A program made the translations under genes and the position numbers. Shown here piece after piece: positions 1-61,981 of a DNA stretch of 64,000 nt (position 1 is the stretch's first letter; every line of letters begins with the position of its first letter). The notes under the pieces are model-generated. The model saw only the letters and a program-made list of their open reading frames with translations, did not search any database and had not been told where the DNA came from. The stretch is from Myxococcales bacterium (GTDB lineage: Bacteria; Myxococcota; UBA727; JABDBI01): assembly GCA_023898405.1 (NCBI GenBank), contig CP060221.1:4958-68957 (forward strand). Reading direction: 5' to 3'.

Positions 1-142
1 GCTTGAGAAGCAAAAATTGAGAAAAGTTTATTAATCTTTAATCGCTACAGACATGGCTTCCTTTAAGTGAAAATCAGTATAAATCAGTCAATAAATATGT
101 TTTTGGCTTCCATCATTAACTGCTAAAACAAGGAAAATCATC

Positions 143-799
143 ATGATTAAGAATGTTTTTATCATTACTGCATTGGTAGCAATTAATCTTTCAGCTGGAA
201 GGAAACAAGCTAATCCATCTCAGCATTTGACGCCCCAATTCTCGAGAGCATATCAAAAAATTATTAATGCTAAAAGTATATCTATCTTGCCAAACGAAGG
301 GCCATTAGACTCTGAAAAGGTTTATTTTTACAAGGGGAGCTTAGAAAATGCGCACATGCATCAATATTTTCCTAAGCCCTATAACGCTAATCAAAGTAAT
401 TCCCGCATGCAAACTGAAGATGGCGGAATAATAAGAAAGATGAATCAAAGACTGCCGTACGGGCAAAGTACTGATTTTAAACTGCAAGCAAAGGTGTGGA
501 TATTGCAATATAATGATGAAGCTTATGTTTATGTGGAAGAATGGTGTTCGAAGCAAATCGAGCTTGAATATGCTGATTATTATCCCTCGAGCCCCCGTAT
601 TTATGAACCGAATTTAAATAACAACGACAATGACACTCAATTTATCCCGCCGCCGACTCCAAAGCCGATATGGCCAAGCATGGAACACAATCAGGAAGTA
701 ATAAGTGAGGAAAAAGATAGCCTAAATGACTTCGATAAGCTTATAGACGGGGGTATTCCCTCACCCACCTTAGAAGAACTGATAGCAACAGCCTTATGA
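143..799 (+). CDS. hypothetical exported protein (218 aa), N-terminal signal-peptide-like hydrophobic segment, Pro-rich C-terminal region
   Basis: ORF with hydrophobic N-terminus MIKNVFIITALVAINLSAG; no recognisable catalytic motif. Confidence 0.4.
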   Translation: MIKNVFIITALVAINLSAGRKQANPSQHLTPQFSRAYQKIINAKSISILPNEGPLDSEKVYFYKGSLENAHMHQYFPKPYNANQSNSRMQTEDGGIIRKMNQRLPYGQSTDFKLQAKVWILQYNDEAYVYVEEWCSKQIELEYADYYPSSPRIYEPNLNNNDNDTQFIPPPTPKPIWPSMEHNQEVISEEKDSLNDFDKLIDGGIPSPTLEELIATAL

Positions 800-1009
800 A
801 TTATTAATTTTAGTTAAGCTTTTTAGAAGCAAAACTCACTCGATGTCCTTATGCACACTTTAGTAATGTCATGAACACAAAGCCTGAATTGAAATAACAA
901 ACGAGCTATAGGAATAACTATGTTTATAAGTTTATCCCCCCTCCTTTACCTGTACCTTACTAAGTTTGCTTATTGAAGTAACAAATCTGATGAAAAAGTT
1001 AGAGTTCTA

Positions 1010-2350
1010 ATGCTAGCCGTCTTAATAATTTTGATGACATTTGTTAGCGGATGCAAAAACATCCAACATAAGGTGGTACCGGCCTTTAAATTGGCTTCGG
1101 AGTCTATTAGCCAAAATATACCAGGCCCTATTTTTTTCATAAACAAAGATAAAAATAGGACGCTTAGTATTGATCCTGAAACACTAGAGATTTGTTTAAT
1201 AGGTGATGAAGGGAAGATAGTGCTATCGCACTCGCAAAATAAGATTCCGATAAAAATCATAAGTAAAACACGTGATATTTTTGTGTTTTCAAGAGATGGA
1301 CTGCTTTTTACTACGGCAATTCGAAGAGATAAGATTACGGTCAAGATTTCTAATATATCTAAGCAACCCGCAAATTTGATTTTTCCATCTTTAGAAACTA
1401 AAGACCAATTTCTTCTGCCTATACTAGAAGGGGTTATGATATCGCCACATAGTAAATCCTGGATGAGCTATATGGGAAGCCATACTCGTGAATTAATCGA
1501 ATTATTTTCTTTCCCTGCATGGGGACTAAGAACTTCTGCTGAAACTTTTTCATACCTTATAGAAGATCCTATTGAAACAGAGGCAATTAATTTAGAAAGC
1601 AAAGAAAATGAATACCAAAAATCATTACATATTCAAAATAAAATAAATCAATTCGCAAAGTCATTCCCAGGTGGTGTGCTTGAAGCAACACAGAATTGGG
1701 GTAATAGTGTATCTCCTTGGATTATTCAGCAATTAGAAAAATCAGGGATAAAGAGAGCATGGCTTGGGGTTAACAGTTTTGAACATGCTAAAAACCATAT
1801 TGGTTTTATAACGGCTGCGGTTGAAAAAAATTATCTCGTCGGAGCTTACGATTCGTACCATTCGATGCATGATCCTAATAACTCAGAATGGCCAACAGCT
1901 AATTTGGGTTCAAAAGTTTTCAAAGAATCAAGGATAACAACCTCAACAGGTATACAGAGCAAAGGATTTCTCGGTAAAGGTTTTCATGTAAATAGTAAGT
2001 ACATTCGTTCTTACTTTGAAAACATAACCGGCAATCAAATTTCTATAGGTTTCAACTCTTGGTTCATAGATTGTGACGGAGCAGGGGAACTATTTAGCAA
2101 TTATGGAGAAATGTACCCAATGACTCAAGCGGAAGATCGACAGGAACGAATTGATCGTCTGCAATGGCTCGAGAGAAATTATAAGATCGTAGTAGGAACA
2201 GAAGGAGCTCGCTCTTATATAGTGCCTTCAGTCCACTTTGCACATGGAACACTTACTCCGCCATTTACCTATAGCTTTAAGCAAATATTTTGCGAGAGAT
2301 ACTCTATGGAGTTCCTCCCTTATTTCATGTCAATAGAAGTGAGTGGGTAA
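1010..2350 (+). CDS. putative lipoprotein (446 aa), function unknown
   Basis: N-terminal signal with lipobox-like LMTFVSGC; long ORF; followed by out-of-frame fragments (2290..2659) suggesting 3' decay. Confidence 0.45.
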   Translation: MLAVLIILMTFVSGCKNIQHKVVPAFKLASESISQNIPGPIFFINKDKNRTLSIDPETLEICLIGDEGKIVLSHSQNKIPIKIISKTRDIFVFSRDGLLFTTAIRRDKITVKISNISKQPANLIFPSLETKDQFLLPILEGVMISPHSKSWMSYMGSHTRELIELFSFPAWGLRTSAETFSYLIEDPIETEAINLESKENEYQKSLHIQNKINQFAKSFPGGVLEATQNWGNSVSPWIIQQLEKSGIKRAWLGVNSFEHAKNHIGFITAAVEKNYLVGAYDSYHSMHDPNNSEWPTANLGSKVFKESRITTSTGIQSKGFLGKGFHVNSKYIRSYFENITGNQISIGFNSWFIDCDGAGELFSNYGEMYPMTQAEDRQERIDRLQWLERNYKIVVGTEGARSYIVPSVHFAHGTLTPPFTYSFKQIFCERYSMEFLPYFMSIEVSG

Positions 2351-2659
2351 AAAACGGCAAGATAGTATCCCGCTACTATTCTGCTGTTGGAAACTTTTTG
2401 CAAGTAATTGCCCCTCAAGAACTTTTAGAATTTAATATTCTTACAAAAGATAGACTTGTTCAAAAAACTATTTTTACGAACGGCTTATGAAGTCATAGCT
2501 AATTTTTCTTCTTCATCCTTGCATAAAATAAAAATTGGAAAAAGATTTTTTATAATACCCCCATTGTCCGCACTATTGGTTTCGCAACAACAAACTCAGC
2601 TTGTAAAGGTAAAACAAATTCTGATGGGGCAAAGATCCAACGTTTTTGCTGAACATTAA
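2290..2659 (+). pseudogene. two short out-of-frame ORF fragments downstream of and overlapping the 1010..2350 gene; possible gene remnant
   Basis: 66-aa and 67-aa ORFs in the two other frames; the second starts with TTG, so no ATG start; no RBS seen. Confidence 0.2.
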
Positions 2660-2681
2660 GATAGCTTTTTCAAGATCTGCA

Positions 2682-3344
2682 TCAGCAAAAATAATTGTGG
2701 AAAGTAATTTCCAGAAATTTTTGATACTCTAAAGCATCTTTAAAATCGTTTTTATAGTCTTGATACCCGTAGTGAGGGTCTAAGAGCAAATCAATTATTT
2801 TTTCAAAACAACTATTGATTTCGCATTTATAATTACCGCTTGAAATTAATTTTTCTAACTCGATTTTCACTTTTTTTCTCCATTTTTGTTTTTTAAATAT
2901 TTTTTCTTGGGCACGAATTTTTTGATTGGCTTTATGTTTAAAACTTTCACTAACTGGATTTGAAAATTGGATTTGAACGGAGCCAAAAGATTGAGATTTA
3001 TAATATTCTTTCTCGCCAACCAGGTCTTCAACAGCTGCTACGTAATTTCTATAGCAGGCAAGAGAATTATGCCCAGTTTGAGTTTTTTGCAATATCATCT
3101 GATCATCGTGCCTAAAAGTTACAATGTGAATTGTGTGCGAAAAGATGACAAACAGCTGATAAGTACCGCTGTCATTTGGCGAACTGGAAAAAAGGAATGT
3201 TCCGTCATTTTGAGTGCTCAGAAGCTGCAAATGCTCTCTTGAAACATTTTTAATATAAGCTTCGTGCTCATGGGCAAGAGTCGAGAATAAATTATTAGAA
3301 AAAATGCCGTTCAAGGCGAAAAAAAAACAAATAATTTTACGCAT
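2682..3344 (-). CDS. hypothetical exported protein (about 220 aa from internal Met MRKIICFFFALNG)
   Basis: ORF 2682..3416; signal-peptide-like segment begins at the internal Met, so start placed at 3344. Confidence 0.4.
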   Translation of the reverse strand: MRKIICFFFALNGIFSNNLFSTLAHEHEAYIKNVSREHLQLLSTQNDGTFLFSSSPNDSGTYQLFVIFSHTIHIVTFRHDDQMILQKTQTGHNSLACYRNYVAAVEDLVGEKEYYKSQSFGSVQIQFSNPVSESFKHKANQKIRAQEKIFKKQKWRKKVKIELEKLISSGNYKCEINSCFEKIIDLLLDPHYGYQDYKNDFKDALEYQKFLEITFHNYFC

Positions 3345-3667
3345 GGATGTCCTCACTGTAAAGCATTGAATACAGGCAACCAAATAGTAAAAAATTAGAA
3401 CGAGAAAGTATTCCAATTACATATGAATGACTAGTATTTAAGGTCTACAATTTGGGCACTATTGCACGCTGAAGCGAAATTTAACCTGATTGAATCGAGG
3501 TAGCATACGATAATAAATGTAATTATATGTGCGCATGAAGTTGCATCTGTTCAACCAAGAAAACAACAGGTATTGAATCGAGTTTTCATGGGAAAAGATA
3601 GTAAGATAAAATATTTCCCCTAACAGCCCTTTATTTGGGGAGGATAGGGGTATATGGTACTCGCGCG

Positions 3668-4339
3668 TTATTCTATGACTCGTCGGGCATGCATAAAACG
3701 TGATTTATACCATCCGTCGAATTTGCGAACTTGAACTCCAGAATTAGTGGACGAGCTTGTCGAATCAATAATATGGTCTGGATCGACATAGATGACAACA
3801 TGGACTACGCGACTTTTATTGCTATCTCCAATGTAGAGCAAATCACCTGGTTCAAAGTTTTCACCAGAACGAAGCTTCCGGCCAGCTTTTAATGACACGC
3901 TTTGTTGTGCAACATCGCTTGTAAACAAAATACCAAGGCCGTAGTTATAAACCCAAGTCGTAAAATTAGAGCAATCTAAGCCGACTCCACCGGTAAGAGC
4001 TTTTCCCGGTGTCGCTTCAGGAGACCAGGCCAGAATATGATGATGCCTGTACTTGATTCCAACATATTTTTTAGCGACTGCAAGTATGCGCTCCCTTTTC
4101 CATCTGATGGAGTCACATCCCGCAGGTGCGCTTACTTTAGGAAATTGTTTCCAAAGGGGACCCCATTCCCATCCTCCACTTGTCGTAATGTCGTATTTCG
4201 GCCAACTAGATTTTGGCTTATCAGTTTGGGGCAGCTGGTCTCTTTGGGAAAAATCAGATGTAAGACTAACTTCACATTGGTTAGGCAGAAGCGTGCTATT
4301 TAGTGTTGGTGTGTCTTGGACTTTAATTACGGTACCCAA
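3668..4339 (-). CDS. NlpC/P60-family cell-wall peptidase domain (C-terminal part of a probably frameshifted lipoprotein gene)
   Basis: Cys motif GLDCSNFTTWVY and His motif HVVIYVD typical of NlpC/P60. The ORF has no ATG (begins at TTG) and overlaps the upstream lipoprotein ORF by 13 bp in another frame. Confidence 0.6.
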   Translation of the reverse strand: MGTVIKVQDTPTLNSTLLPNQCEVSLTSDFSQRDQLPQTDKPKSSWPKYDITTSGGWEWGPLWKQFPKVSAPAGCDSIRWKRERILAVAKKYVGIKYRHHHILAWSPEATPGKALTGGVGLDCSNFTTWVYNYGLGILFTSDVAQQSVSLKAGRKLRSGENFEPGDLLYIGDSNKSRVVHVVIYVDPDHIIDSTSSSTNSGVQVRKFDGWYKSRFMHARRVIE

Positions 4340-4743
4340 ATCTCCTGGTCCAAAATCAGGATTTTGTCTTCTTGTATATTTTCAGCAGGATTATTTTTAT
4401 TTTCCAAAGTGCCTTGAGCCTTTGATGGTTCAGGTACTAAAACAGCCCCCAGAATATCTTGGGGTTTTTTGCCGATCGTTTCAGGCAGTTCTTCGCTTAT
4501 TTTCTTCTCAAATTCTTTGGGAGGGTGGTCTATGGGCCCTGGTTTATCACTTTGCAAATCAGGTGCATTATGCCCACCAATGGAATCATCTATGCCTTTG
4601 GATGTTTTAGTAGGTTCACTCTCAATATTATGAGCTGGATTTGAAGCTTGACCTGATCCGCTACCATTACAGGATGCGACCATTATACCAGTCACTAGGA
4701 TCGTTATTTGCTTGAAAAGATGTATTAATTGGTTAATTTTCAT
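4327..4743 (-). CDS. lipoprotein N-terminal segment (signal plus lipobox VASC, Gly/Ser/Pro-rich linker); likely N-terminal part of the NlpC/P60 gene
   Basis: ATG at 4741..4743 preceded by AGGA; LVTGIMVASCNGSGSG lipoprotein signal; ends 13 bp inside the NlpC/P60 ORF. Confidence 0.4.
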   Translation of the reverse strand: MKINQLIHLFKQITILVTGIMVASCNGSGSGQASNPAHNIESEPTKTSKGIDDSIGGHNAPDLQSDKPGPIDHPPKEFEKKISEELPETIGKKPQDILGAVLVPEPSKAQGTLENKNNPAENIQEDKILILDQEIWVP

Positions 4744-4964
4744 AATGATTAAAATCCTAAGTTCTAGTTCATATCGCTGACCTAACAATTTCTGTAGCGA
4801 GAAACCACGACCACGATCAAAAGCTTTGGGAAAACTCTTCAAAATTGAAGGTAAATAGATTCATTCTAAGCTCCAATCTGGTACGCTATGGTCTATTTAA
4901 AACGACGCTGATTTTTAAGCGAAAATTGCGGTTTCTAAAATCTTTGACTTACTTTTGCCTTCTA

Positions 4965-5702
4965 CTATTCTTCTTTTGTGAATGACATTTTGCTTTTACC
5001 TTGATAGTGCTTAATGTCATGAAATGCTTCGGACTGATAGCGTGCACTATAAAACAGGCGCAGATTTTTTTCTTCAAGAGTTATATGAGATATATAAGTT
5101 GCAGGGTAAAAACCATCGTCATTTTTGGGTTCTTTTATGTTTCCAAAAAAGATCCAGTCAAAAAAGTAGGCTATGCGTGCAACAAGAAATGCAAGATGTT
5201 TTATGCTTAAAGCATTTTTTGAAAGAGCATTTTCAAGTTTTTGTTTTTCCTTAATAAAAAATACTTGAACTGTAAGTTTTGCACTGTCGAACTGCGGGCG
5301 TTCCGTGTATAAAAAGTAGGAAGAAAAATAATCCCAATCATTCCTTCTAATATTCAATGTTTCTCGCAACATTTCATCAATCATGTCTCTCATATATATC
5401 GCTAATTTTTCCTGGTTTTCAGGTAATAATGAACCGTGCTCATGTTCTTCGCTAAACCAGGAGGCAAGTGCATCAATATCATCAAGTAATTCTTCTGATA
5501 CGTTATTAGGACGTGGAATATCTGTGAAGTTATTTTGTATAATTTGATATGGCACATCATCAATAGCCAAAGCAGTTTTATCGCTTATTTTTGTATTTGT
5601 AATCGTACAGGCGGCAAGCGCGAGTGTTCCGTAAAGGGCTAGTGTAAAATAAATTCGAATGCATTTGGTCAGGGAAAAAAAATGCCAATACATAGGAATC
5701 AT
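4965..5702 (-). CDS. putative lipoprotein (about 245 aa), function unknown
   Basis: Internal Met start MIPMYWHFF...LALAACTITN with lipobox LAAC; long ORF. Confidence 0.4.
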   Translation of the reverse strand: MIPMYWHFFSLTKCIRIYFTLALYGTLALAACTITNTKISDKTALAIDDVPYQIIQNNFTDIPRPNNVSEELLDDIDALASWFSEEHEHGSLLPENQEKLAIYMRDMIDEMLRETLNIRRNDWDYFSSYFLYTERPQFDSAKLTVQVFFIKEKQKLENALSKNALSIKHLAFLVARIAYFFDWIFFGNIKEPKNDDGFYPATYISHITLEEKNLRLFYSARYQSEAFHDIKHYQGKSKMSFTKEE

Positions 5703-5955
5703 AAAGACCTCTTTTTGATTTTGCCCACTTATCAGGTCTATTAAAAAAGTACAGTTGAGTTCAGTAACTGGAATGGCACTACTAAGGAGGACATTATCGG
5801 GGAAAAAATAAAGCAAGATGAAAAATAGTCCCCACTTTCTGCCTCTTTGAAAAATTTTGCAAAAGCGATTTTTTGGAAATATTCAAATTCTTTTCTAGTT
5901 TCTCCTGCTAAAAAGCGCGGAACTAATCCGCGCCTATTTTTTACACAAGATAATG

Positions 5956-6609
5956 TCAAGTATACGAACACTCAAAAAAATTCCCGTCCTCATCCCAAGG
6001 TTGAAGAATTACACTCTCAAAATCACTTGTTGTATTTATTTGTGCTGAACAATCTTTTTCATCGATGCTCCAAATAATTTCAAACGTGAAAGTAAGTTGC
6101 CCATCAACTTTACTAACGAGGGTAAGAAGTAAATCAGCTTGTGAATAGATTTCTTTAAATTCGCTTTTATCTTGGGCAAAAAAATCTTGCACTGTTTTTG
6201 ATTGAAGAATTTTCTCCTTAATCTCTGGAGTGATTCCATTCACGTCATAACAAAGATCTGTTGTGGCTTGATCAAAAAAGCCATAGACGCTGGGCTCCCA
6301 AGTGGTTTGGCTAGGGACTAATAAAGAACCGCTAGGCATTTCCATGCTAATTTTACGAAAACTATTGGCTTCTATTTTTTGGATTTCAAATTGTTCTTCA
6401 TTTCTTTCAAAAAGGCATTCTTCAGAAGAAATTTGATTGCCACCTGCATTCAAATATTGAATGCTTGCAGACGACCAATAATTATTTTCGTTGATTTCTA
6501 TTCGGTAGGCTCCAGTTGTGGAATATGGGCAAATGACCGACCAAGTATTGTAGGCACTAGCGCTTAGACCTAGCATAAGAGTCGTAAAAATAGGTACAAA
6601 TTTTTTCAT
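5956..6609 (-). CDS. hypothetical exported protein (217 aa)
   Basis: Signal peptide MKKFVPIFTTLMLGLSASA. Confidence 0.45.
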   Translation of the reverse strand: MKKFVPIFTTLMLGLSASAYNTWSVICPYSTTGAYRIEINENNYWSSASIQYLNAGGNQISSEECLFERNEEQFEIQKIEANSFRKISMEMPSGSLLVPSQTTWEPSVYGFFDQATTDLCYDVNGITPEIKEKILQSKTVQDFFAQDKSEFKEIYSQADLLLTLVSKVDGQLTFTFEIIWSIDEKDCSAQINTTSDFESVILQPWDEDGNFFECSYT

Positions 6610-6800
6610 TCCTTCACCTTCTGAAACTTTTGTATAAAAGCAGCTCAGTACAAAAAACTTGCAAAAAGTTTTTTAAAAGCTGTGTAAAGTTTTTATTAAA
6701 AGGGAGAAAAATTTGGCCTTTAAATCGTAGAGAGCATATTTGAGTTAGTTCGTATAATTTTATGTATCAATAACGAAAACAATCTCTAAGAGACCGTTTT

Positions 6801-6834
6801 GAAAATATTTTCTCAGCTTAGAGAAAATATTTTT
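6801..6834. terminator. perfect 14-bp inverted repeat (GAAAATATTTTCTC / GAGAAAATATTTTT, 6-bp spacer) immediately 3' of the PP2C gene; probable terminator or operator
   Basis: Read directly from sequence; lies 9 bp beyond the PP2C stop codon. Confidence 0.35.
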
Positions 6835-6842
6835 GTCCTCTA

Positions 6843-8048
6843 TCACGTGTCATCACCGCCTGCGCTGGGATGACAAGGGAGAGCGGTCAAAATCACAACG
6901 CTAATGGTGATATCATCACGGATTCCCGAGAGAAGGTTTTCTTTTTCTTGATCTTCGCGATAAGGATTACTTTCATCTTTCTTTGCTGATGCAATCATCA
7001 ATTGATGAACAATGCTCTCAGCATCTTCTCTTTCATCTAAAAGCTTCTTTGTTTGGGTATAAGCATCGTCATTAGAGATATTGTCCCAAAATCCATCAGA
7101 AGCAATAATAAAAAATTTATTTTGACCTCTAACAAGCGGCACAAATTTAATCTCTGGTTCATAGGTCAGTCCACATTTATGTTTGCCATATCCCAACGCA
7201 CGCGTCATCTCTGACAGGGGACTCTCTTCTTCCCAGTCAACCTTAGTAATTATTTTCTGATCGCTGAGTAGATCTTGGTGAGGGTTGGTCGAAATAGGAA
7301 TAGATTCAGAACGATCAGGATTTTCATTTTCACATAAAAATAATTTTCTACGAACTGATTTATTACCTAGAGAGTCGCGCTTTTTTTGTACAACTTGTGG
7401 CGCTTTTCTATATTTTTCAGGTGGTTCTAAAATTGAATCTAGCTCCTTTTTTGGTTGGCACGAAAATTTTTTAATTCGCTCTTGCTCACTTTCACATTCC
7501 CAATTATGGTCGGCCGTTGCAAAAAAAATATTTTCATCGCCAAGTTCCCCCACCAAAATACGAGAGTCGCCCGTGTGAGCTAAAAAATAGCCTTCTTCAT
7601 TCCTTTCATTGCGAGCAATAATTAAAACTGCAGCAGTAGAGCCAGAAGGTTTACTTGTTCTCTGTGCTCTGTAGCCATTATTGGCGTATTCGAAACTTGT
7701 GACAATGCTTTGCTCTTGAAGTTTAAAATCGGGTTGCAACGCTGTATTTAGGCTGGGATAGATTACATCCTTGGCATATTGCGACATTCCGTAGCCTCTG
7801 TGTCCATCAAACACTCCGAAAAAAGCAAAGGACGCTTTATTAACATTTATAAAACGATCTTCATTAGGACCGCTTTTTCGATTGGTTTGTTGTGTAACTG
7901 TTGCAAAGTCTAGAGAATATTTTTCAAAAATTTTTTTGCAGTTGTCTTCTTCTGGCATCAGATTGCTAGCCAGCAGCAAAGAACTAAAGATAATATTAAA
8001 AAAAAATATCAATCGAAAAAAATTTAAAAAAAATTTTTGCTGTGCCAT
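6843..8048 (-). CDS. PP2C/PPM-family Ser/Thr protein phosphatase with N-terminal signal peptide or membrane anchor and a roughly 100-aa internal insertion
   Basis: PPM motifs FGVFDGHRG, SGSTAAVLII, LAHTGDSRILV, FFIIASDGFWDN, DDITISVV; N-terminus FFRLIFFFNIIFSSLLLASN hydrophobic; ATG start. Confidence 0.75.
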   Translation of the reverse strand: MAQQKFFLNFFRLIFFFNIIFSSLLLASNLMPEEDNCKKIFEKYSLDFATVTQQTNRKSGPNEDRFINVNKASFAFFGVFDGHRGYGMSQYAKDVIYPSLNTALQPDFKLQEQSIVTSFEYANNGYRAQRTSKPSGSTAAVLIIARNERNEEGYFLAHTGDSRILVGELGDENIFFATADHNWECESEQERIKKFSCQPKKELDSILEPPEKYRKAPQVVQKKRDSLGNKSVRRKLFLCENENPDRSESIPISTNPHQDLLSDQKIITKVDWEEESPLSEMTRALGYGKHKCGLTYEPEIKFVPLVRGQNKFFIIASDGFWDNISNDDAYTQTKKLLDEREDAESIVHQLMIASAKKDESNPYREDQEKENLLSGIRDDITISVVILTALPCHPSAGGDDT

Positions 8049-8169
8049 TTTGTCTCAAAATAGTTAGGTTGATGATCCTAACCATCTAAAATCATTTATC
8101 TTTTATGTAAAGAGGAATTCTATTCCCAAATATAAAAATAATAAATTAAAAGAGTTTTCGGATCAGCCG

Positions 8170-8553
8170 CTAAAAATCATTCACCACATTTTCCGAGGCA
8201 GTTCCAGAAACCTTGAGTGTCACATGCTCAAACTCCTGCACACGTTTGTCCTTAAGTTTCATGTGGCTCAAAACTTTAAAGCACGATATCTGACCATTTT
8301 CATTTATTTCAGAGAAGTGTTTGCAAAAGGCCTTATTGTCATCAGCTAGGTAATCAACAAAAGTGACCTTCAAATCTCTTTCTTTCATCCACATAATCCG
8401 TTTTTTAAACTCATCGTAGCTTAGCTCTTTGCCGTTCAAATTGATTTTGGCATCTGGGTAAAAATAATCTTCCAATAAATCGACCCTTCCTCCAGCTACC
8501 AAATTAGTGAAAAGTCCTTTAAAAAATAAGTTAAGCTGTTCATTATTTTTCAT
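8170..8553 (-). CDS. small hypothetical protein (127 aa), possibly NTF2/SnoaL-like fold; divergent from the AraC regulator
   Basis: Start at internal Met MKNNEQ preceded by GAGGGA RBS; weak fold-level guess only. Confidence 0.35.
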   Translation of the reverse strand: MKNNEQLNLFFKGLFTNLVAGGRVDLLEDYFYPDAKINLNGKELSYDEFKKRIMWMKERDLKVTFVDYLADDNKAFCKHFSEINENGQISCFKVLSHMKLKDKRVQEFEHVTLKVSGTASENVVNDF

Positions 8554-8646
8554 ATAATTTCCCTCAGTTTCTTTTGCGTATAAACTTTTTTTGAACTTCA
8601 TGCTTATCAATTGCGGTCGTAAAATTATCCAAAACGGACTTAAAGA

Positions 8647-9429
8647 ATGAAAGATCTTGAAAAACAAATAGATAGCAAGCAGAACCTTGTGGTGAGCTCA
8701 CGGAAAAATTATCGTGCTGGGCGAATAATAATCGACGAACATGCTCATAAGAAGCATCAAATTATTATTCCTCGCTCAGGAAGCATTCAAGTAATCGCAT
8801 CGGATCATGGCACGTACATGGCAACTTCTGGACAAGGTTTTTTTATTAAGGCTCATCAAAATCATCATGCCATTTATAGCGGAGTAATTTCTGTAGATAA
8901 TTTATACTTGTCTCCTCAGGTGTGCGATTTATTGCCTGATACTTTTGTATTTGAAATAACCAGTCTTTTATCTGCTCTCGCTGAAAGGCTTTGCAAAAAA
9001 TTGCACTGGGACAAATTGACCAAAGAACTGAGTTCTCTATGTTATCTATTGTGCGAAGAAATCAAAAACCATCATCAACCAGCCTCTTTTTTGCCTCGTC
9101 CCAACAATACCCAATTATTAGCAATAACGACCTCTATTGAAAACAATGTGCAATATATGAGCTCGATCAAGGATATTGCCAAAAAACTCAATATGAGTGA
9201 GCGACATTTTCGCAGATTTTTTCAAGCCGAATGCAAAATGAGTTTTTCTGCATGGCTTACTCGCCTAAAGATCATGCTGGCTAAAGAGATGCTTGCCGGA
9301 ACACTACCAATATCAGAAATTGCTTTGGAATTAGGTTTTGAAGAATTTGGTTCGTTCAGTCGTTTTTTTAAAAAAAATATAGGTGTTACTCCAGCTCAAT
9401 GGAGAAACAATTACTTGAGAGAAGTATGA
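8647..9429 (+). CDS. AraC/XylS-family transcriptional regulator (N-terminal cupin-like sensing domain, C-terminal AraC-type HTH)
   Basis: C-terminal motifs IKDIAKKLNMSERHFRRFFQ...SFSAWLTRLKIMLAKEML...ISEIALELGFEEFGSFSRFFKKNIGVTPAQWR. Confidence 0.8.
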   Translation: MKDLEKQIDSKQNLVVSSRKNYRAGRIIIDEHAHKKHQIIIPRSGSIQVIASDHGTYMATSGQGFFIKAHQNHHAIYSGVISVDNLYLSPQVCDLLPDTFVFEITSLLSALAERLCKKLHWDKLTKELSSLCYLLCEEIKNHHQPASFLPRPNNTQLLAITTSIENNVQYMSSIKDIAKKLNMSERHFRRFFQAECKMSFSAWLTRLKIMLAKEMLAGTLPISEIALELGFEEFGSFSRFFKKNIGVTPAQWRNNYLREV

Positions 9430-9745
9430 AAAATATAAAACTGTTTTTGTTGATTTTTTATGCGGGTCCTATTCTTAGTTATTCAAGCATGATGCCTCAT
9501 TTGAAAAATGAAGAGGAGAAATTCATTTCTTATGCAGGTAGAAAAAGAAATTTCCGGGAAATTAGTGCAAAGTTCCATCTAGCTGAAGTTGTTTTAAATA
9601 ATCATAACTAGTTGTCGTGCTGCTTGTGACCTAGGCTTCCTCCTAATAAAATGTAAGACTTGTAATCTTGAAACGTACTCTATTTGAGGTGGACCGCTGC
9701 TCAAGATAATGTTCTTAATTACTTAAAAAGAATATTTCAAATCAT

Positions 9746-9770
9746 CTAAGGGCGCATTAAAGCGCCCTAG
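9746..9770. terminator. GC-rich palindromic hairpin (CTAAGGGCGC-ATTAAA-GCGCCCTAG) downstream of the thioredoxin-like gene; probable terminator
   Basis: Perfect palindrome seen in sequence, 30 bp past the stop of the minus-strand gene. Confidence 0.4.
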
Positions 9771-9801
9771 CAGAAATCTAGCTCAACAATTTGTACCTGA
9801 A

Positions 9802-10287
9802 TTATTTGGTCCTTTTGACCAAATTATAGATAGCTTCAATGTCATTTTCATTCAGCACACCGTAGTGCCGATAGATGATGTTTTGATTTTGGTTTAAGAC
9901 AAAAATAGAGGGAACTTTTGTTATGCGATAGGCTCGTTGTGCAATACCACTTGGGTCAATTGCCATGTCAGTGGAAATGTTTTGTTGTTGAGCAAAATTT
10001 TTGGCGGCCACTAAATTATTTATTGAGATTAGGCGGCTATAAGCGAGGCCTTTAACTTTCTCTTCTAGCTTTTTAAACGGCTCGACATTTCTTTTGCAAT
10101 GCGGGCATGAAGCGGAAAAAAATTCCAACACAATAAATGAATTGCCGCTTGTATCGCAGATATTTTTTGACTCTCCTGAGATGTGTTCTAAAGTAGGGCA
10201 AAGGAGCTGTGCATCCGTGGCCGTTTCACAAAAAGAAGATAATGGAAATATTGTAACTAAGAAAAGGGTAGAGATAATTAGCTTCAT
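9802..10287 (-). CDS. exported thioredoxin-fold thiol:disulfide oxidoreductase (TlpA/ResA/DsbE-like)
   Basis: Signal peptide MKLIISTLFLVTIFPLSS; redox motif SCPHCK (CxxC). Confidence 0.6.
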   Translation of the reverse strand: MKLIISTLFLVTIFPLSSFCETATDAQLLCPTLEHISGESKNICDTSGNSFIVLEFFSASCPHCKRNVEPFKKLEEKVKGLAYSRLISINNLVAAKNFAQQQNISTDMAIDPSGIAQRAYRITKVPSIFVLNQNQNIIYRHYGVLNENDIEAIYNLVKRTK

Positions 10288-10379
10288 GTGAGCCCCCTAG
10301 AAGAATCGCATCCATATCATTGTCAATATATTTGCTGGAGTGGTCAAAATTTCTTTCGAGGAGTGCTCTCAATGTAAAT

Positions 10380-21471: not shown

Positions 21472-23211
21472 CTAGCGATCCAGGTCAGCAAGAACAAAGT
21501 CCACGCTTCCCAAAATGGCCATTAAGTCTGGAATAGTCGTTCCTTTGGCAAGCAAAGGAAGCATCTGTAAGTGAGCGAAAGATGGAGTCCGAATACGAGT
21601 GCGGTAGGATCGATTGCTGCCGTCACTGATCAAATAGTAGCTATTGATACCTTTGGTCGCTTCAATGCCAAAAAAAGATTCACCGGCAGGCATCACAGGT
21701 CCCCATGAAACATTCAAAAAATGCTGAATCATTGTTTCAATATTTGCCAGAGTTTCTGCTTTGTTTGGCGGGGTTGTCAGGGGATGATTCGATTTAGTTG
21801 GACCATTAGGCATTTTTTTTACGCATTGCTCGATAATACGCAAACTCTGGCGCATCTCTTCAATGCGCACCAAACCTCTATCGTAGCAATCGCCATTTTT
21901 AGCGGTAGGAATATCGAAATTAAATTGTTCGTATCCCGAGTAAGGGCGTTTTTTTCGTAAATCCCATTCAAGGCCAGTTGCTCTTAGTCCAGCCCCGCTT
22001 ATTCCCCATTCTATCGCTTCTGATAAAGAGTAAGCTCCAATTCCAATAGTGCGTGCCTTAAAAATGCTATTTTCCATGACCAATCGATCATATTCTTTAA
22101 GCTTGCTTGGGAAATTTTTTGTAAAATCTAAGACTGCATTTTCCCATCCTTGCGGCAAGTCGTGCGCAACACCGCCAATACGAAACCAGCTTGGATGCAT
22201 ACGGCCACCAGTTATCCCCTCGACAATGCGAAATATTTTTTCACGTTCATTAAACATGTAAAAAATTGGAGAGAGAGAGCCTATATCCTGAGCAAAAGTG
22301 CCGTACCAAACTAAGTGACTGGCAATGCGAAAAAGTTCGCACATCATGACTCTGATAGTTTGAGCTTTTGGAGGAACATCTATGCCAGCCAGTTGTTCAA
22401 CAGCCAACAGATAAGCAAGATTATTCATAACCCCACCGAGATAGTCGATTCTATCAGTGTAAGGGATATAGCTATGCCAATTTTGTCGTTCGCCCATTTT
22501 TTCAGCGCCACGATGATGAAAGCCTATATCCAGCACTGAATCAACAATTTCTTCGCCATCAAGCTGCAAAATAATGCGTAAGACTCCATGAGTGCCAGGA
22601 TGCTGAGGACCTAAGTTTAAAAAGATATATTCATGATCATCATCTTTTCTTTTAAGTCCCCATTCTTCAGGTTTAAATTCTAATAGATCTTGCTCTGCTT
22701 GTTCTTGATCTTCATCGAGGTGGTAAAGACCCATTTCTGTTGCGCGAGCAGGGTGCACTTTGCGTAAAGGGTGACCTTTCCAAGAACGAGGCATGAGAAG
22801 GCGCATAAGGTGAGGGTGACCTATAAAGCTGACACCGAACATGTCAAAAATTTCTCGTTCGTACCAGTTAGCATTTTTGAAGAGCTCAGTCACGCTTTCT
22901 ACGCTGAGTTGGCTATCCTTAAGCGCAACCTTAAGACGAATATCTTCGTTTCGTGCCAACGACAAAAGATGATAGACCAAAGTAACATCCGAATTGGGTT
23001 GAGCATCACAGTGTTCTCGTTCAGTTTCATCGATAGCGGTCAGATCATATAACATAGAAAAAGGTTGAGGCACATTTTTTAGGTAGCTAAGAATAGTTTT
23101 AATTTTTGAGCCTTCGATCCAAACTGTAGGGATGAGATCATTGCTCCTTTGCTGTCCCTTGATTGCCTCGGGAAACTTATTTTTCAGGCTCGAAACAATA
23201 GCTTCGTTCAT
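21472..23211 (-). CDS. nuoCD: fused NADH-quinone oxidoreductase subunits C and D (579 aa)
   Basis: N-terminal 30-kDa NuoC-like region ([14 protein letters not shown]) continuous with a 49-kDa NuoD-like region ending ...VLADLDR. Confidence 0.9.
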
Positions 23212-25785: not shown

Positions 25786-26847
25786 TTGAGCCATGGAGAA
25801 TTTATGGAAATAGCAAGCAGGCGGCGCGAACAAGAAGTGTGGCAAGCGTGTGATGACTTGTGGGCATTACATGGAAGTATGGATGGTATTACCGGCGAAG
25901 CTATTCGCGAGCGCTTGTTGGGGATGGGAAAGAGTCGTGGCAGTCCCAATGAAATCTATAAATATCGTAAAACATGGACAGTGAGCCGAAAAATTGGGCG
26001 AGAAAATACTGGTGACTGTAGTGCTAATTCTGATCCAATTTCGCGCGCAGTTCGTATGGTGCATGAAAAAATTCAGAGCGAAACTCAAGAAGAAATTGAA
26101 AAGATAAAACTAGAATTTAATGAAGAATTACTCACAAAAGACAAAGAAATAGAACAGGGCAAGAAAAATATAGAGGCTCTTGTTCATGAAATGACATCGC
26201 TACAAAGCGAGTTTTCCCAGCTGAGTCAACAACATCAAGCACTAAATGAACAATATCAACGAGAAATAAAGACAAGAAAAGATCTTGAACATGATTTTTT
26301 AATTTTCAAATCTCAGCATGCACAAGAAATAAGCTCCCACGAGCGAATAATGGCCGAATTTTACAAAAATCAAAAGTACACTTTGGAGCAGACCAAAAAT
26401 GCATTTGATAATGCTCAAAATACTCTACAAGCACAACTGATACGCGCCAATGAAGAAAAAAAACAGCTGGGACAAGAATATTCTGAAAGTCTCAATGCTG
26501 TAAAAATTGAGAAATATAATCAAGATGTAAAACTAGGCGAACTAGAACATCAGCTTACATATCTGAAAGATACGCTTGAAATTTCCCAACAAAAAATAAT
26601 TGAACAAGATACAAAATTTAAGACGGTATTGGAAGAGAGCCTCAAACTTCATAAAGAAAGAGATGCATTGCGTGAAAAATTAGCTTTTGTACAAAACGAG
26701 CTTTTTATTGTTCATAATCAACTAAGTGAACTGAAAATAGAAATTGTCAAACGTGATGTTACGATAGCTCGTTTGCGAGCACTGCAGGCACATAGTAGAG
26801 GAAAGACCAATGGAGCATCTAGAGAAAGGCCAGCTGCAAAAACTTAG
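25786..26847 (+). CDS. KfrA-like protein: N-terminal KfrA_N-type DNA-binding domain followed by a long coiled coil
   Basis: N-terminus EVWQACDDLWALHG...TGEAIRERLLGMGKSRGSPNEIYKYRKTW resembles plasmid KfrA N-domain; residues from about 100 to 340 are heptad-rich with E/K/Q/L. Confidence 0.55.
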   Translation: MSHGEFMEIASRRREQEVWQACDDLWALHGSMDGITGEAIRERLLGMGKSRGSPNEIYKYRKTWTVSRKIGRENTGDCSANSDPISRAVRMVHEKIQSETQEEIEKIKLEFNEELLTKDKEIEQGKKNIEALVHEMTSLQSEFSQLSQQHQALNEQYQREIKTRKDLEHDFLIFKSQHAQEISSHERIMAEFYKNQKYTLEQTKNAFDNAQNTLQAQLIRANEEKKQLGQEYSESLNAVKIEKYNQDVKLGELEHQLTYLKDTLEISQQKIIEQDTKFKTVLEESLKLHKERDALREKLAFVQNELFIVHNQLSELKIEIVKRDVTIARLRALQAHSRGKTNGASRERPAAKT

Positions 26848-27937
26848 GTCGAATCTTATCCAAAATGAAAAGTCTGATTGCCGCATTAGAGCTCGCAACG
26901 ATGTTGAAGCATTTGAACGATGGCTCGACGAGTATTTTGAAAAACCCACCACCTACCGTAGTTATAAGAAAGAAGGAGAAAGGTTTTTGGTGTGGTGTGC
27001 GCTTGAAAGAAACTGCACGCTCGAGACGCTCAGCAGAGACGATGTTGAAGCCTACATTTCATTTTTAAAAAACCCTCAACCCTTTGAAAAATGGTGTGGT
27101 CCTAAGGGAGGGCGTTCTCATAAGGGTATTTGGAAACCATTTAGTGGTCCACTAGGTGAGAGTGCTATTCGCTGTGCGCTTGCTATTCTCAACTCTATGA
27201 TGGGTTATTTGGTGGATGCAGGTTATGTTTCTTTTAATGCTTTTGCCCTCATACGAAGAAAAAGTAGGCTTAAAGAAAAATTGGTCAGTAATCGCTTTTC
27301 TATTGAGGAGCGAATCTTAAGCCAAGAAGAATGGCGGGTGTTTCTTCAAACGATGCGCGATTATCCGGAAAATAATTCTCATGAAGTGAAAAAAAAACAA
27401 AGGCTAATTTTTTTAGTTACAATTCTTTATTTTTTGGGTTTACGGATCGATGAATTAGCCCAATCAACATGGGCAAATTTTCGTCAGCTCAATGGTAAAT
27501 GGTGGTTTTTTGTACGAGGGAAAGGCGATAAGCTGGGCAAAATTCCTATCAATCGAAATCTTTGGCAGGCAGTTATAAAATTCAGGCTGAGCCTTGCTAT
27601 GTCACCCATACCCCACGAAGAAGATTATCTGCCTATAATTCCCTCATTAAGCTCGCCACAAAAAACACTCACGACCAGGCAAATGAGCAATTTGCTTAAA
27701 GAACTAGCACTCAAAGCGGCTTTGCAATTGAAGGGAAACCCACATAGCGCCAAAAAAATGGAAAAATTTTCCCCGCACTGGTTAAGACATTTATCGGCAT
27801 CGAGGCAGGATTTGGCTGGTGTTTCATTTACCCACATTAAAGAAAACCTTCGGCACTCAAACGAACAAACGACCAGACACTATGTCCACGCTTTTGATGA
27901 TAAGCGCCATGAAGAAATGGAAAAATTTAATTTTTAA
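26810..27937 (+). CDS. tyrosine site-specific recombinase (phage-integrase family)
   Basis: N-terminal SAM-like domain; catalytic box LGLRIDEL (R), KGDKLGKIPIN (K), HWLRHLSAS (HxxR), LRHSNEQTTRHYVH (Tyr nucleophile). Confidence 0.8.
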   Translation: MEHLEKGQLQKLRSNLIQNEKSDCRIRARNDVEAFERWLDEYFEKPTTYRSYKKEGERFLVWCALERNCTLETLSRDDVEAYISFLKNPQPFEKWCGPKGGRSHKGIWKPFSGPLGESAIRCALAILNSMMGYLVDAGYVSFNAFALIRRKSRLKEKLVSNRFSIEERILSQEEWRVFLQTMRDYPENNSHEVKKKQRLIFLVTILYFLGLRIDELAQSTWANFRQLNGKWWFFVRGKGDKLGKIPINRNLWQAVIKFRLSLAMSPIPHEEDYLPIIPSLSSPQKTLTTRQMSNLLKELALKAALQLKGNPHSAKKMEKFSPHWLRHLSASRQDLAGVSFTHIKENLRHSNEQTTRHYVHAFDDKRHEEMEKFNF

Positions 27938-29129: not shown

Positions 29130-30428
29130 ATGATTGTAAGGATAATTGTTTTCTTTTTATGTCGCAGTTTGTTTTCGTTGAACATGTTTGAGCAAGGTGA
29201 AGAGATTCAGAGAAATGAGCTCATAAGCGAAATTATTATTCCGGATACTGAAAACGATGAGAATAGAGCTCAAGAAATTAATCTAGAACAAAATCTAGCC
29301 GATGCAGGTATCGAGGCTGAAAACGAAAATTTAAGAAATATCATCACTTCAAGGAGGATTGTTCAAGAAAATAGATCTGAAGTTGGAACTGTTGAACAAA
29401 TACTTCCAGAAGTAAGTGCAATGGGTGACTTTAATAATGATAATGCCAAAAATAACGAAAAGACGTCAGAAAATACCAACGAAAAGATAGTAAGGATTTT
29501 TCGCGTTAACCAAGGCTCTAATCATGGTGAAGTGTTTGGTTCACGAATTTTTATGGGAAAAGGTAAGATGTTGGGTCTTCCCAATGAAATTTGGGCGGAA
29601 ATTGCTTCCTATCTAGATCTAAAAGACCTAGCAAATTTCAGACTGGTTTGCCATGACACCAATGATGTGGTTTCGTTCGCAGGCAAGCTGCAGGATTCCT
29701 GGCTGCATTCGAATAGGTTTTATGAACATTTGGCTTACCTAAGAAAGTTGACCGGTTTTATAAAAATAAGTGAAAATTTAGCGGTGTCACATGTGGATAA
29801 AAAGTTTGTGAAAATTTGGTATAGATCAGATGATAGTTCTTCTTATTCGCTGTTAGAAACAATAGATCTCAGTGAAGCCGTCAAGGTGGGCTCGTCTGAC
29901 AGAATTAAACCTTTGGAGGGTAGCAATTTCTATTTATGTTCTTATGAGCACAACGACGATACCTTCGGTGTGTCCACCGATGATGAAGTAGGTGCGTATG
30001 TTTTTAAGCTTGAGGAAAAAGGATTTACATGTGCCTATGTGGCAGATGAAAAATTGGAGAACCTTAAGATTAACTGCTCTAGTGCGGATATACTTTCCTT
30101 TGCTTTGATGATTAATCTAGGGCCAGAGAAGGTGTGTTGCAAGGAAGATATGCTGCTCATTTTTGAATCCTTAGTGGAAAAGTATCAGCCAACAAGTAAA
30201 AAAGCCCAAGAAGTATTGTTGTCACTAATTATAGCGGCAGAATTAAACAAAGAAGTTGCTGACCGAAAGCTATTACTATCCGCGTGTCAGGCCCTACATG
30301 AAGTAGGCGAAAAACGCTGTAGTGAAAATAAATCAATTAAAGGGTTGCTGTCTGATGTCACTAAAGAAGACTTTCTCGACTGCAATTCAAAAATAAAAAA
30401 ACAACACAACACATGCGCATTGTTGTAA
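29130..30428 (+). CDS. F-box domain protein (eukaryote-like; candidate host-targeting effector)
   Basis: aa 148-178, LGLPNEIWAEIASYLDLKDLANFRLVCHDTN, matches the F-box consensus LPxEIxxxIxxxLxxxDLxxxxxVC; GGAG RBS 9 nt upstream of ATG; acidic low-complexity N-terminal region. Confidence 0.7.
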   Translation: MIVRIIVFFLCRSLFSLNMFEQGEEIQRNELISEIIIPDTENDENRAQEINLEQNLADAGIEAENENLRNIITSRRIVQENRSEVGTVEQILPEVSAMGDFNNDNAKNNEKTSENTNEKIVRIFRVNQGSNHGEVFGSRIFMGKGKMLGLPNEIWAEIASYLDLKDLANFRLVCHDTNDVVSFAGKLQDSWLHSNRFYEHLAYLRKLTGFIKISENLAVSHVDKKFVKIWYRSDDSSSYSLLETIDLSEAVKVGSSDRIKPLEGSNFYLCSYEHNDDTFGVSTDDEVGAYVFKLEEKGFTCAYVADEKLENLKINCSSADILSFALMINLGPEKVCCKEDMLLIFESLVEKYQPTSKKAQEVLLSLIIAAELNKEVADRKLLLSACQALHEVGEKRCSENKSIKGLLSDVTKEDFLDCNSKIKKQHNTCALL

Positions 30429-33149: not shown

Positions 33150-34412
33150 TTAATCTAGGCTTACAGCTTCGATGGCTTTTACCCTTTCTAATGTAGTGGG
33201 GTGAGAGTAATGATACGCGCTATACCAAGGATGTGGTGTAAGGTTGCCTAAGTTTTCCTTGGTGAGTTTTACCAATGCATCGGCGAGATGCTTTTTATCC
33301 CGAGTTGTGTGAACCGAAAACTCATCTGCTTCAAATTCATTGTGTCGAGAAATTTTTGTAAAAATCGGTGAAATAGGAAACATGAATACCGATGAGAACA
33401 AAGCAAAGAGTACAAGTCCTACATGAATGCTTGGCTGAAAGGCACCAAGTGCAGTGAAAAAAGGTGGCCATTGAATGCAAAGGGAGAGCACGTAAAAGAG
33501 TGCCAGCATAATAACCGAAGATAACACCAAACTTTTTTGGATATGTTTTTTGACGTTATGTCCCATTTCATGAGCAATTACGCCAACAATTTCATCTTCG
33601 GAATGTTTTTCTATGAGCGTATCAAACAAAACAATCCGTCTCATTGAGCCAAGGCCTGCAAAAAAAGCATTAGAGTGCGAGGAACGTTTAGAACCATCTA
33701 TGGTAAAAATTCCAGCCATTTTAAAATTAACTTTTTTCGCCAAGTCCTCGATTCGTGTCTTTAAGCTTCCATCAGCAAGAGGGCTAAACTTATTAAAAAT
33801 AGGAGCTAGAAACACGGGATAAATGGCTGCCGTGAAAAGTTGAAAACCCATCACTAATGCAAAGCCAAAAATCCACCATTGAGGACCACTCTCACCAATA
33901 ATCCAGAGCAAAGCAGCAATAAGTGGAACTCCAAATAATAATCCTAAAAGCGCACCTTTAATTTGATCGAGTACAAAGGTTTTAAAATTCATTCGGTTAA
34001 AACCAAATTTTTCTTCTAAAACGAACTGGTAAAAATATGATTGAGGGATTCCAAAAACAAAAAATACGCCACCTACGGCAAAGGGATAAATAACTCCTCG
34101 CCAAAAAGTATTGCTGAAATAAGCAGAAAGCCAGGTGTCGAGATGTCCAAAAAAACCACTCAAAATCAAAGTAAAAACAAAAGCAGTTTTTAATATGAGA
34201 GTGAAAATCTTAAAATTAGTTTTTGCTTTGGTGTAGTCGATGGATTTTTTGTAGTCAGTTTCAGAATATATCCCCTTAAATAAATCGGGTACGTGGGATT
34301 TATGTTGATCGACGTGGCGTATATTAAGAAGGTCGAGACCAATTTCAACCAATAAATACGCTAAGTAAAAAATCAAAAATACAACAAAAAACCAATTATC
34401 AAAAATGTTCAT
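33150..34412 (-). CDS. Ste24-like CAAX prenyl protease, M48 family zinc metalloprotease (multi-TM)
   Basis: HEMGH (HExxH) zinc motif plus downstream NEFEADEFS; about 7 TM helices N-terminal; 420 aa, consistent with M48A. Confidence 0.75.
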   Translation of the reverse strand: MNIFDNWFFVVFLIFYLAYLLVEIGLDLLNIRHVDQHKSHVPDLFKGIYSETDYKKSIDYTKAKTNFKIFTLILKTAFVFTLILSGFFGHLDTWLSAYFSNTFWRGVIYPFAVGGVFFVFGIPQSYFYQFVLEEKFGFNRMNFKTFVLDQIKGALLGLLFGVPLIAALLWIIGESGPQWWIFGFALVMGFQLFTAAIYPVFLAPIFNKFSPLADGSLKTRIEDLAKKVNFKMAGIFTIDGSKRSSHSNAFFAGLGSMRRIVLFDTLIEKHSEDEIVGVIAHEMGHNVKKHIQKSLVLSSVIMLALFYVLSLCIQWPPFFTALGAFQPSIHVGLVLFALFSSVFMFPISPIFTKISRHNEFEADEFSVHTTRDKKHLADALVKLTKENLGNLTPHPWYSAYHYSHPTTLERVKAIEAVSLD

Positions 34413-61765: not shown

Positions 61766-61842
61766 GGCGAGGTAGCTCAGCAGGTTAGAGCGACGGTCTC
61801 ATAATCCGTAGGTCGGGGGTTCGAGTCCCCCCTTCGCCACCA
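61766..61842 (+). tRNA. tRNA with anticodon CAT (elongator Met, or Ile2 if lysidine-modified); encoded CCA
   Basis: Manual cloverleaf: acceptor GGCGAGG/CTTCGCC, D-arm GCTC-AGCAGGTTA-GAGC, anticodon arm ACGGT-CTCATAA-TCCGT (31:39 T:T), T-arm GGGGG-TTCGAGT-CCCCC, discriminator A, CCA. Confidence 0.85.
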
Positions 61843-61950: not shown

Positions 61951-61981
61951 CTCATGATTGATCACATCTTTTTGTTGACAA
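61951..61981. repeat. IS left terminal inverted repeat (31 bp)
   Basis: Exact reverse-complement match to 63404..63434. Confidence 0.8.

Follow-up and report, generated by a model that had tools for sequence, protein, structure and literature searches.

A eukaryote-type phosphatase of the PPM/PP2C family is encoded at 6843..8048 on the reverse strand of the DNA analysed here, a stretch of 64,000 nucleotides (the window) from a genome labelled 'Myxococcales bacterium' (GenBank assembly GCA_023898405.1, contig CP060221.1, positions 4,958 to 68,957). Its catalytic residues and predicted fold are those of an intact enzyme, to which are added an N-terminal segment resembling a Sec signal and a long, predicted disordered loop beside the active site. 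The reading preferred here, about as apt to be right as wrong, is of an active Ser/Thr phosphatase that is exported by Sec to act on phosphoproteins of a host, its choice of substrate or its location being governed by the loop. Bacterial PP2Cs are usually regarded as working in the cytoplasm alongside kinases of the same cell. An earlier note on this DNA had proposed a periplasmic or secreted, possibly host-directed phosphatase. Export is made plausible by signals in 53 of the 150 nearest relatives, and the host idea is supported by an F-box protein and, more weakly, by an SH2-like protein encoded in the same window, but the start codon that decides whether this protein carries a signal is ambiguous.

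Catalytic core and family assignment

The gene occupies the longest open reading frame (ORF) at its place in the window, and its product is titled at NCBI 'MAG: protein serine/threonine phosphatase 2C family protein [Myxococcales bacterium]' (USN50853.1; MAG, metagenome-assembled genome). The 401-residue protein matched the Pfam PP2C profile PF00481 at 98 bits (E = 9e-28) with a cut-off of 20.3 bits, so the match is not due to chance. Every PPM motif named in the earlier note was present in the translation, where the series ran as NEDRF (residue 62), DGHRG (81), GSTAAV (136), GDSR (160), TRALGY (282), ASDGFWD (316) and DDITISVV (378). The C-terminal half of the core also held a 13-residue NPYRxD segment specific to the subfamily.

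Catalytic residues were mapped by alignment to human PPM1A, in a sequence whose numbering agreed with the published positions of R33, E37, D38, D60, G61, H62, D146, D239, D243 and D282. E37/D38 of PPM1A corresponded to E63/D64, D60-G61-H62 to D81-G82-H83, D146 to D161, D239/D243 to D318/D322, D282 to D378 and R33 to K58. The phosphate-binding basic residues (R57/K58 and R283) and the general acid histidine (H83) were all retained. Across four alignments of the protein with 10, 5, 98 and 49 relatives (A1-A4), D81, G82, G136, G160 and D161 were invariant, and D64, H83, D318 and D378 were invariant or at least 90% conserved. E63 and R283 were likewise conserved, but E63 fell below 90% in the two largest alignments. 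All the metal-binding aspartates were thus kept against PPM1A and the relatives; their loss on careful alignment, together with a non-cleaved cytoplasmic N-terminus, was what the earlier note had named as refuting its proposal, and its claim of a genuine PP2C fold stands.

The AlphaFold2 model (built on a 99-sequence alignment) had a mean predicted local distance difference test (pLDDT) of 82 and a predicted template modelling score of 0.76, with most of the catalytic core above 90. Values were 88-98 for residues 41-190, dropped to about 75 at residues 191-200, where the insertion starts, and were 86-98 for residues 278-389, the C-terminal half of the core. Foldseek aligned the model to PPM1K, PPM1A and others (E = 4.5e-16, probability 1.00). 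By its residues and modelled fold the protein is an intact and presumably catalytically competent PPM/PP2C, and nothing in either suggests an inactive pseudo-phosphatase.

It is very improbable that the fold serves other chemistry, such as de-AMPylation, or that the gene is a decaying, non-functional copy acquired horizontally. A precedent for the first exists in Legionella SidD, a bacterial effector that is a deAMPylase with a PP2C-like fold (PMC3656104), and the second would suit a gene that is an orphan without orthologue. However, all the canonical phosphatase residues are kept, including H83, R57/K58 and R283, and SidD appeared neither among the 47 PDB sequence matches nor among the top 60 profile matches. 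The reading frame is intact and the core was modelled with confidence.

On sequence and model comparisons the enzyme is a eukaryote-type PP2C and not an equivalog of Stp1/PrpC. All 47 phmmer matches in the PDB were eukaryotic PPMs, headed by a Toxoplasma PP2C (2i44, 34.5 bits), and so were the best 50 of the 139 Foldseek matches in the PDB at E <= 0.001 and the best 60 matches of a subfamily profile search. The matched proteins comprised PPM1K, PPM1A/B/D/H, PDP1, plant ABI1/HAB1/TAP38 and Toxoplasma PP2C; the bacterial PPMs PstP, Stp1, tPphA and SidD were found in none of these three sets. Against the NCBIfam equivalog profile for Stp1/IreP/PrpC (NF033484), the protein scored 32.7 bits, far below the cut-off of 230. 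With no Hanks-type kinase adjacent, an Stp1-type identity was rejected, in agreement with the earlier note, which had doubted the usual kinase partnership. Giant-virus PP2Cs were also considered; they matched only by fold, at 13-19% identity among full-length matches, and gave no sign of a viral origin.

The insertion beside the active site

Between the two halves of the core lies an insertion of about 75-80 residues. The segment from the helix ending in SEQERIKKF to the strand leading into TRALG counted about 82 residues, compared with 11 in PPM1A, and the insertion stands in place of the GGSVM-IQRV hairpin formed by those 11 residues. The model gave pLDDT below 50 over residues 206-275. Charges were unevenly spread, with 12 lysines or arginines in the first 42 residues and 10 aspartates or glutamates in the last 39. 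An insertion of roughly 100 residues, to be mapped to the flap region, had been described before; it exists at the smaller size given here, and alignment with PPM1A and comparison with PDB entry 8t2j placed it just upstream of RALGD and not in the flap segment downstream of RALGD, which is short in this protein.

The same loop is enlarged in human PPM1D/Wip1. In the 8t2j sequence the PPM1D B-loop (VVWKRP...IDQIPF) lies between GGSVM...NR and LAVARALGD, and the insertion occupies the equivalent loop, after the GGxV hairpin and ahead of the strand that precedes RALGD. The B-loop is a flexible, basic insertion of 24 residues into the flap region (V245-F268), which contains a functional nuclear localisation signal and is crucial for substrate recognition (PMC11342775). 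Both inserts are flexible and adjoin the active site, and the first half of the one described here is also rich in basic residues; but it is about 80 residues long rather than 24, and its second half is acidic. The two showed no sequence similarity that would indicate homology, and no canonical nuclear localisation pattern was seen by eye in the insertion. By analogy only, the most plausible role for the insertion is that of a module next to the active site which selects substrates or determines localisation. If so, the loop beside the PPM active site may be a general slot for substrate-selection modules.

Relatives and their signals

Word-indexed protein searches returned almost nothing besides the protein itself. 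An exhaustive HMMER scan of 1.84 billion representatives gave 2003 matches at E <= 0.001, of which the protein alone lay at E <= 1e-30, and the best relative scored 80 bits at 37% identity. The protein is therefore an orphan within a huge superfamily. A C-terminal NPYRxD...GIxDD segment was common to it and to the subfamily members P0003, P0009, P0010, P0004 and P0005, the first three of which also carried an insert at the same site.

Sec-type N-termini, taken as an MKK-type n-region, a run of 12-25 hydrophobic residues free of charge and an acidic residue after it, were present in 10 of the 13 best relatives as well as in the 53 of 150 already mentioned. Scanning GTDB species genomes with the subfamily profile led to loci in MAGs named 'candidate division TM6' and 'Candidatus Babeliales'. 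In these Dependentiae (TM6), three to four signal-bearing PP2C genes stood in tandem arrays (L001, 8618..11863; L002, 8176..12749) next to gyrA. In two orthologue pairs between L001 and L002, the signal regions aligned in frame and without indels, with 12 of 23 and 7 of 14 changes at third codon positions, and Shine-Dalgarno-like motifs preceded Met1. The signals of these Dependentiae proteins are thus truly coding. P0010, the nearest insert-bearing relative with DNA at hand, lay on a bacterial contig with an AAGGA Shine-Dalgarno sequence ahead of its signal, which is likewise truly coding; its locus and the one studied here shared no synteny besides the PP2C gene.

As judged from these sequences, eukaryote-type PP2Cs that carry signals do exist as a class and have many members. 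Signal peptides have been reported on 44% of Dependentiae proteins, candidate effectors included (PMC6561590), and the searched literature held no description of the tandem PP2C arrays and no paper linking Dependentiae with PP2C. Some PP2C paralogues of the arrays had inserts of their own after the RxNG strand.

The N-terminal segment and the start codon

The N-terminus (MAQQKFFLNFFRLIFFFNIIFSSLLLASNLMPEEDN) was hydrophobic over residues 13-31 (mean Kyte-Doolittle value 2.0), with K5 and R12 before this segment and PEEDN after it, so the signal-like character first noticed by eye was borne out by hydropathy. The positive charges before and the acidic residues after the segment predict an N-in/C-out topology, and residues 2-28 were helical in the AlphaFold2 model. 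Rules for cleavage by signal peptidase I, applied by inspection, identified a positively charged n-region, a hydrophobic core at L13-L26 (7-15 residues being expected), L-A-S or L-L-A for the small residues at -3/-1 and a non-basic mature start at NLMPEED. The signal is probably real and used.

Which methionine starts the protein is, on the sequence, ambiguous (Table 1). It is rather unlikely that the enzyme is a cytoplasmic PP2C starting at Met31, with the signal a product of an ORF extended through a T-rich 5' leader, and that it regulates Ser/Thr phosphoproteins of the bacterium itself, such as those modified by the kinase at 42893..43831. Were the signal such an annotation artefact, the protein would simply be a divergent cytoplasmic PP2C of modest interest. 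Several observations favour this possibility or weigh against export or the reading built on it. The first 90 nt, which code for the signal, had 25% GC and 51% T and looked intergenic, the upstream spacer having 27% GC and the gene 38%. Their log-likelihood ratio of codon usage against noncoding DNA (codons 2-30) was -2.0, which falls among stop-free intergenic windows (0.2 +/- 3.3), although it also lies within the span covered by true signal regions in the neighbouring genes (-2.4 to +2.5). T-rich DNA naturally encodes Phe, Leu and Ile, and by a rough estimate would stay open in frame across 30 codons about 15% of the time. Met31 with its following acidic residues resembles the 'ME...' N-termini that two relatives lacking a signal, P0003 and P0009, show at the equivalent point, and the window does contain a signal-less Pkinase ORF. 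The only Shine-Dalgarno candidate for Met1 is a weak GAGA. Even if Met1 is used, the uncharged stretch of 19-20 residues could be an uncleaved membrane anchor. No secretion system genes were seen within the 64-kb window, and the database searches, 1.84 billion representatives included, found no orthologue in which conservation of the signal could be followed.

Nevertheless, nothing comparable to the GAGA was found upstream of Met31, and the peptide goes beyond mere hydrophobicity, having a full n-, h- and c-region layout with the correct charge polarity. Most of the close relatives have genuine signals. The NCBI annotation also starts at Met1, the enzyme is of eukaryote type and not of Stp1/PrpC type, and the kinase lies 35 kb away, beyond unrelated operons. 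A promoter scan found no sigma-70-like promoter favouring either start.

Table 1. Features of the phosphatase gene and its flanks (positions in the window)
Feature	Position	Strand	Remarks
Complete PP2C-family coding sequence, 401 aa + stop	6843..8048	-	ATG start, TGA stop; identical to NCBI USN50853.1
Weak Shine-Dalgarno-like GAGA	8053..8056	-	5-8 nt upstream of Met1
Signal-peptide-like segment, residues 1-28, MAQQKFFLNFFRLIFFFNIIFSSLLLAS	7965..8048	-	n-region with K5 and R12, h-region L13-L26, small A27/S28, then acidic PEEDN
Alternative start codon, Met31	7956..7958	-	would give a 371-aa protein without signal
PP2C core, N-terminal half, residues 41-196	7461..7928	-	E63/D64 (NED), D81-G82-H83 (DGH), G136-S-T, G160-D161-S-R
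Insertion, residues 197-277	7218..7460	-	predicted disordered; basic, then acidic
PP2C core, C-terminal half, residues 278-389	6882..7217	-	R283 (TRALG), D318/D322 (DGFWD), D378/D379 (RDDIT)
Two tandem hairpins directly after the stop, the second followed by a U-rich run	6776..6833	-	RNA fold -22.5 kcal/mol, z = -3.4; terminator scan match 6800..6776

Proposed function

Under the preferred reading of a Sec-exported, host-directed enzyme, the gene would give a Mn2+/Mg2+-dependent Ser/Thr phosphatase (PPM/PP2C), whose precursor would bear a Sec-type signal at its N-terminus and probably be cleaved by signal peptidase I around A27/S28. The signal would take it across the inner membrane, and a type II system or vesicles might carry it across the outer one. 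Its substrates would most likely be phosphoproteins of a eukaryotic (protist) host, since ATP-dependent protein kinases are not known to work in the periplasm and the genome encodes other eukaryote-only domains. The disordered loop of about 80 residues by the active site would choose the substrates or set the location of the enzyme in the host.

The clearest of these domains was in the F-box protein at 29130..30428 (+), which scored 33 bits against the Pfam F-box profile (cut-off 20.5). Its N-terminus, MIVRIIVFFLCRSLFSLNM-FEQGEE (also given as MIVRIIVFFLCRSLFSLN-M-FEQGEE), is signal-like and follows a GGAG Shine-Dalgarno sequence. An F-box, as far as we know, makes sense only inside a eukaryotic cell, and the protein marks the organism as eukaryote-associated. 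A weaker case was ORF 2682..3344 (-), which when started at Met25 of the listed frame is signal-like with a GAGGA Shine-Dalgarno sequence. It gave a borderline SH2 score (20.6 bits, cut-off 21) and a DUF7145 match, and a PDB sequence search reached the SHIP2 SH2 domain at E = 0.15, with the FLVR arginine replaced (FLFSSS). Its single-sequence AlphaFold model (pLDDT 46) was too poor for a fold search.

An exported enzyme might instead serve the bacterium itself, in the periplasm or held in the inner membrane by an uncleaved signal-anchor, acting on envelope components or non-protein phosphoesters. The 19 uncharged residues from L13 to M31 would suffice for such an anchor, and several neighbours are of envelope type (NlpC/P60, a thioredoxin-like protein, lipoproteins). 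But protein substrates would be lacking in a periplasm that is not known to have ATP-dependent protein kinases, the active-site residues are the canonical ones of protein phosphatases, and the F-box protein, with the same kind of N-terminus, would function only inside a eukaryotic cell. This makes a role in the bacterium's own envelope quite improbable.

The junction between signal and mature protein showed a further regularity. In 12 of the 53 signal-bearing relatives (P0004, P0007, P0011, P0050, P0070, P0084 and others), the uncharged stretch ended in a methionine, directly ahead of the first charged residue (0.75 expected; binomial P about 1e-11), although these sequences are related and do not count as independent events. 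The methionine usually stood within [GASC]-M-[DE], and the same layout was seen in the phosphatase (LLAS-NL-M31-PEED) and in the F-box protein of the window. It is possibly the old initiator left behind when signals were added upstream, possibly a mark of dual initiation, and possibly part of a sorting motif.

A broader and rather doubtful hypothesis can be built on this. Under it, bacteria associated with protists (Dependentiae and the present lineage) would share a widespread and for the most part undescribed class of eukaryote-type PP2C effectors exported by Sec, with the phosphatase as one member. The signals might be the product of a cytosolic gene, obtained by horizontal transfer, that was extended at its 5' end into a T-rich leader, with a fossil initiator methionine at the junction and perhaps dual initiation giving exported and cytoplasmic isoforms. 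The insert at the B-loop site would guide the enzyme to particular compartments of the host, for instance the nucleus. The gene would offer a test case for how an enzyme taken over from eukaryotes turns into an exported effector once a signal is added ahead of its former start codon.

Granted export of the protein and of those relatives that bear signals, they would make up a class of Ser/Thr phosphatase effectors directed at hosts and delivered by the general Sec route, of which no description was found in the searched literature. Their existence would raise the questions of how such proteins cross outer and host membranes, and which host phospho-signalling pathways protist parasites switch off.

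Genomic neighbourhood

The phosphatase gene lies in a region (1..10300) with lower GC (0.35-0.38) than elsewhere in the window (0.40-0.44), packed with orphan exported proteins and lipoproteins. The region has the appearance of an accessory or effector island and borders on the nuo operon. The cluster of exported proteins described in the earlier note was recovered by inspection, with signal-like N-termini in ORFs 143..799, 2682..3344, 5956..6609 and 9802..10287 and lipoboxes in ORFs 1010..2350, 4327..4842 and 4965..5816, seven neighbours altogether. ORF 1010..2350 encodes a GH129-like lipoprotein, 8647..9429 an AraC regulator and 9802..10287 a thioredoxin-like exported protein. An NlpC/P60 ORF without a credible start (3668..4339) overlaps the upstream lipoprotein-signal ORF (4327..4842, both on the reverse strand) by 13 nt in another frame, and the two could be a frameshifted or programmed-shift lipoprotein peptidase.

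The phosphatase gene itself looks monocistronic, given an upstream gap of 121 nt and the two hairpins past its stop, the second of which, with its U-rich run, is a likely intrinsic terminator by which the gene closes its own transcription unit. PADLOC placed it in no defence system.

No Pkinase domain was found among the ORFs scanned from 143 to 10287, and none within about 30 kb of the gene; the nearest Pkinase ORF being 35 kb away, the absence of an adjacent kinase noted earlier held. This kinase, the only one in the window, is of Hanks type (312 aa, 42893..43831, reverse strand), has no signal, overlaps the end of queG and lies just upstream of an rpsG-fusA-tuf cluster.

The F-box gene lies just downstream of a phage-type integrase gene and a KfrA-like gene (25786..26847 and 26810..27937, forward strand), and may therefore ride on a mobile element. 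A Ste24-like CAAX prenyl protease (Peptidase_M48_N and M48; 33150..34412, reverse strand) could matter if effectors are prenylated by the host. Towards the end of the window, a tRNA gene (61766..61839, forward strand) is followed by an IS4-type DDE transposase gene (61952..63355, reverse strand), with a sign change in GC skew near 62 kb.

Besides ordinary housekeeping genes, the genome carries the nuo operon in full. It encodes a fused NuoC/D subunit (579 aa, 21472..23211, reverse strand), and at 2.5 Mb and about 40% GC it bears the 'Myxococcales bacterium' label. Its EF-Tu stood alone in its 90% cluster, a reason to check the taxonomic label.

Comparison with known systems

Eukaryotic PPM1-type PP2Cs (human PPM1K and PPM1A/B, plant ABI1/HAB1/TAP38) have the fold and the full catalytic set in common with this protein and were its best matches in sequence, profile and structure, but identity was only about 17-20% in structural alignments. 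The bacterial protein adds the signal-like N-terminus, the insert of about 80 residues before RALGD and the 13-residue NPYRxD segment, and its flap after RALGD is 9 residues shorter than that of PPM1A. With Stp1/PrpC/PstP, the bacterial partners of eukaryote-type Ser/Thr kinases, it shares the PPM superfamily; it is longer, has eukaryote-type elements and has no kinase beside it. SidD lacks a Sec signal and depends on a type IV system for its delivery; both proteins are built on a PP2C-like fold, but the one described here keeps the canonical phosphatase motifs.

Its best database relatives are the PP2Cs of Dependentiae (TM6/Babeliales) and other uncultured bacteria (L001, L002, P0002-P0011), which are likewise of eukaryote type with a Sec-type signal. 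Identity to them is at most 37%, and the gene is single-copy here and not part of a tandem array. The host genomes differ as well, in that a full nuo operon is present here, which to our knowledge is not expected for Dependentiae.

The closest analogues in function would be two. SP-STP of Streptococcus pyogenes is a secreted bacterial PP2C reported to reach host cells (PMC6213207), and Toxoplasma gondii secretes PP2Cs (PP2C-hn and PPM3C) into its host (PMC7793252). The Toxoplasma enzymes are signal-bearing PP2Cs of an intracellular parasite, released to act outside its own cytosol; they travel by the eukaryotic secretory pathway (rhoptries, dense granules) and not by bacterial Sec, and are only weakly similar to the phosphatase described here and not its orthologues.

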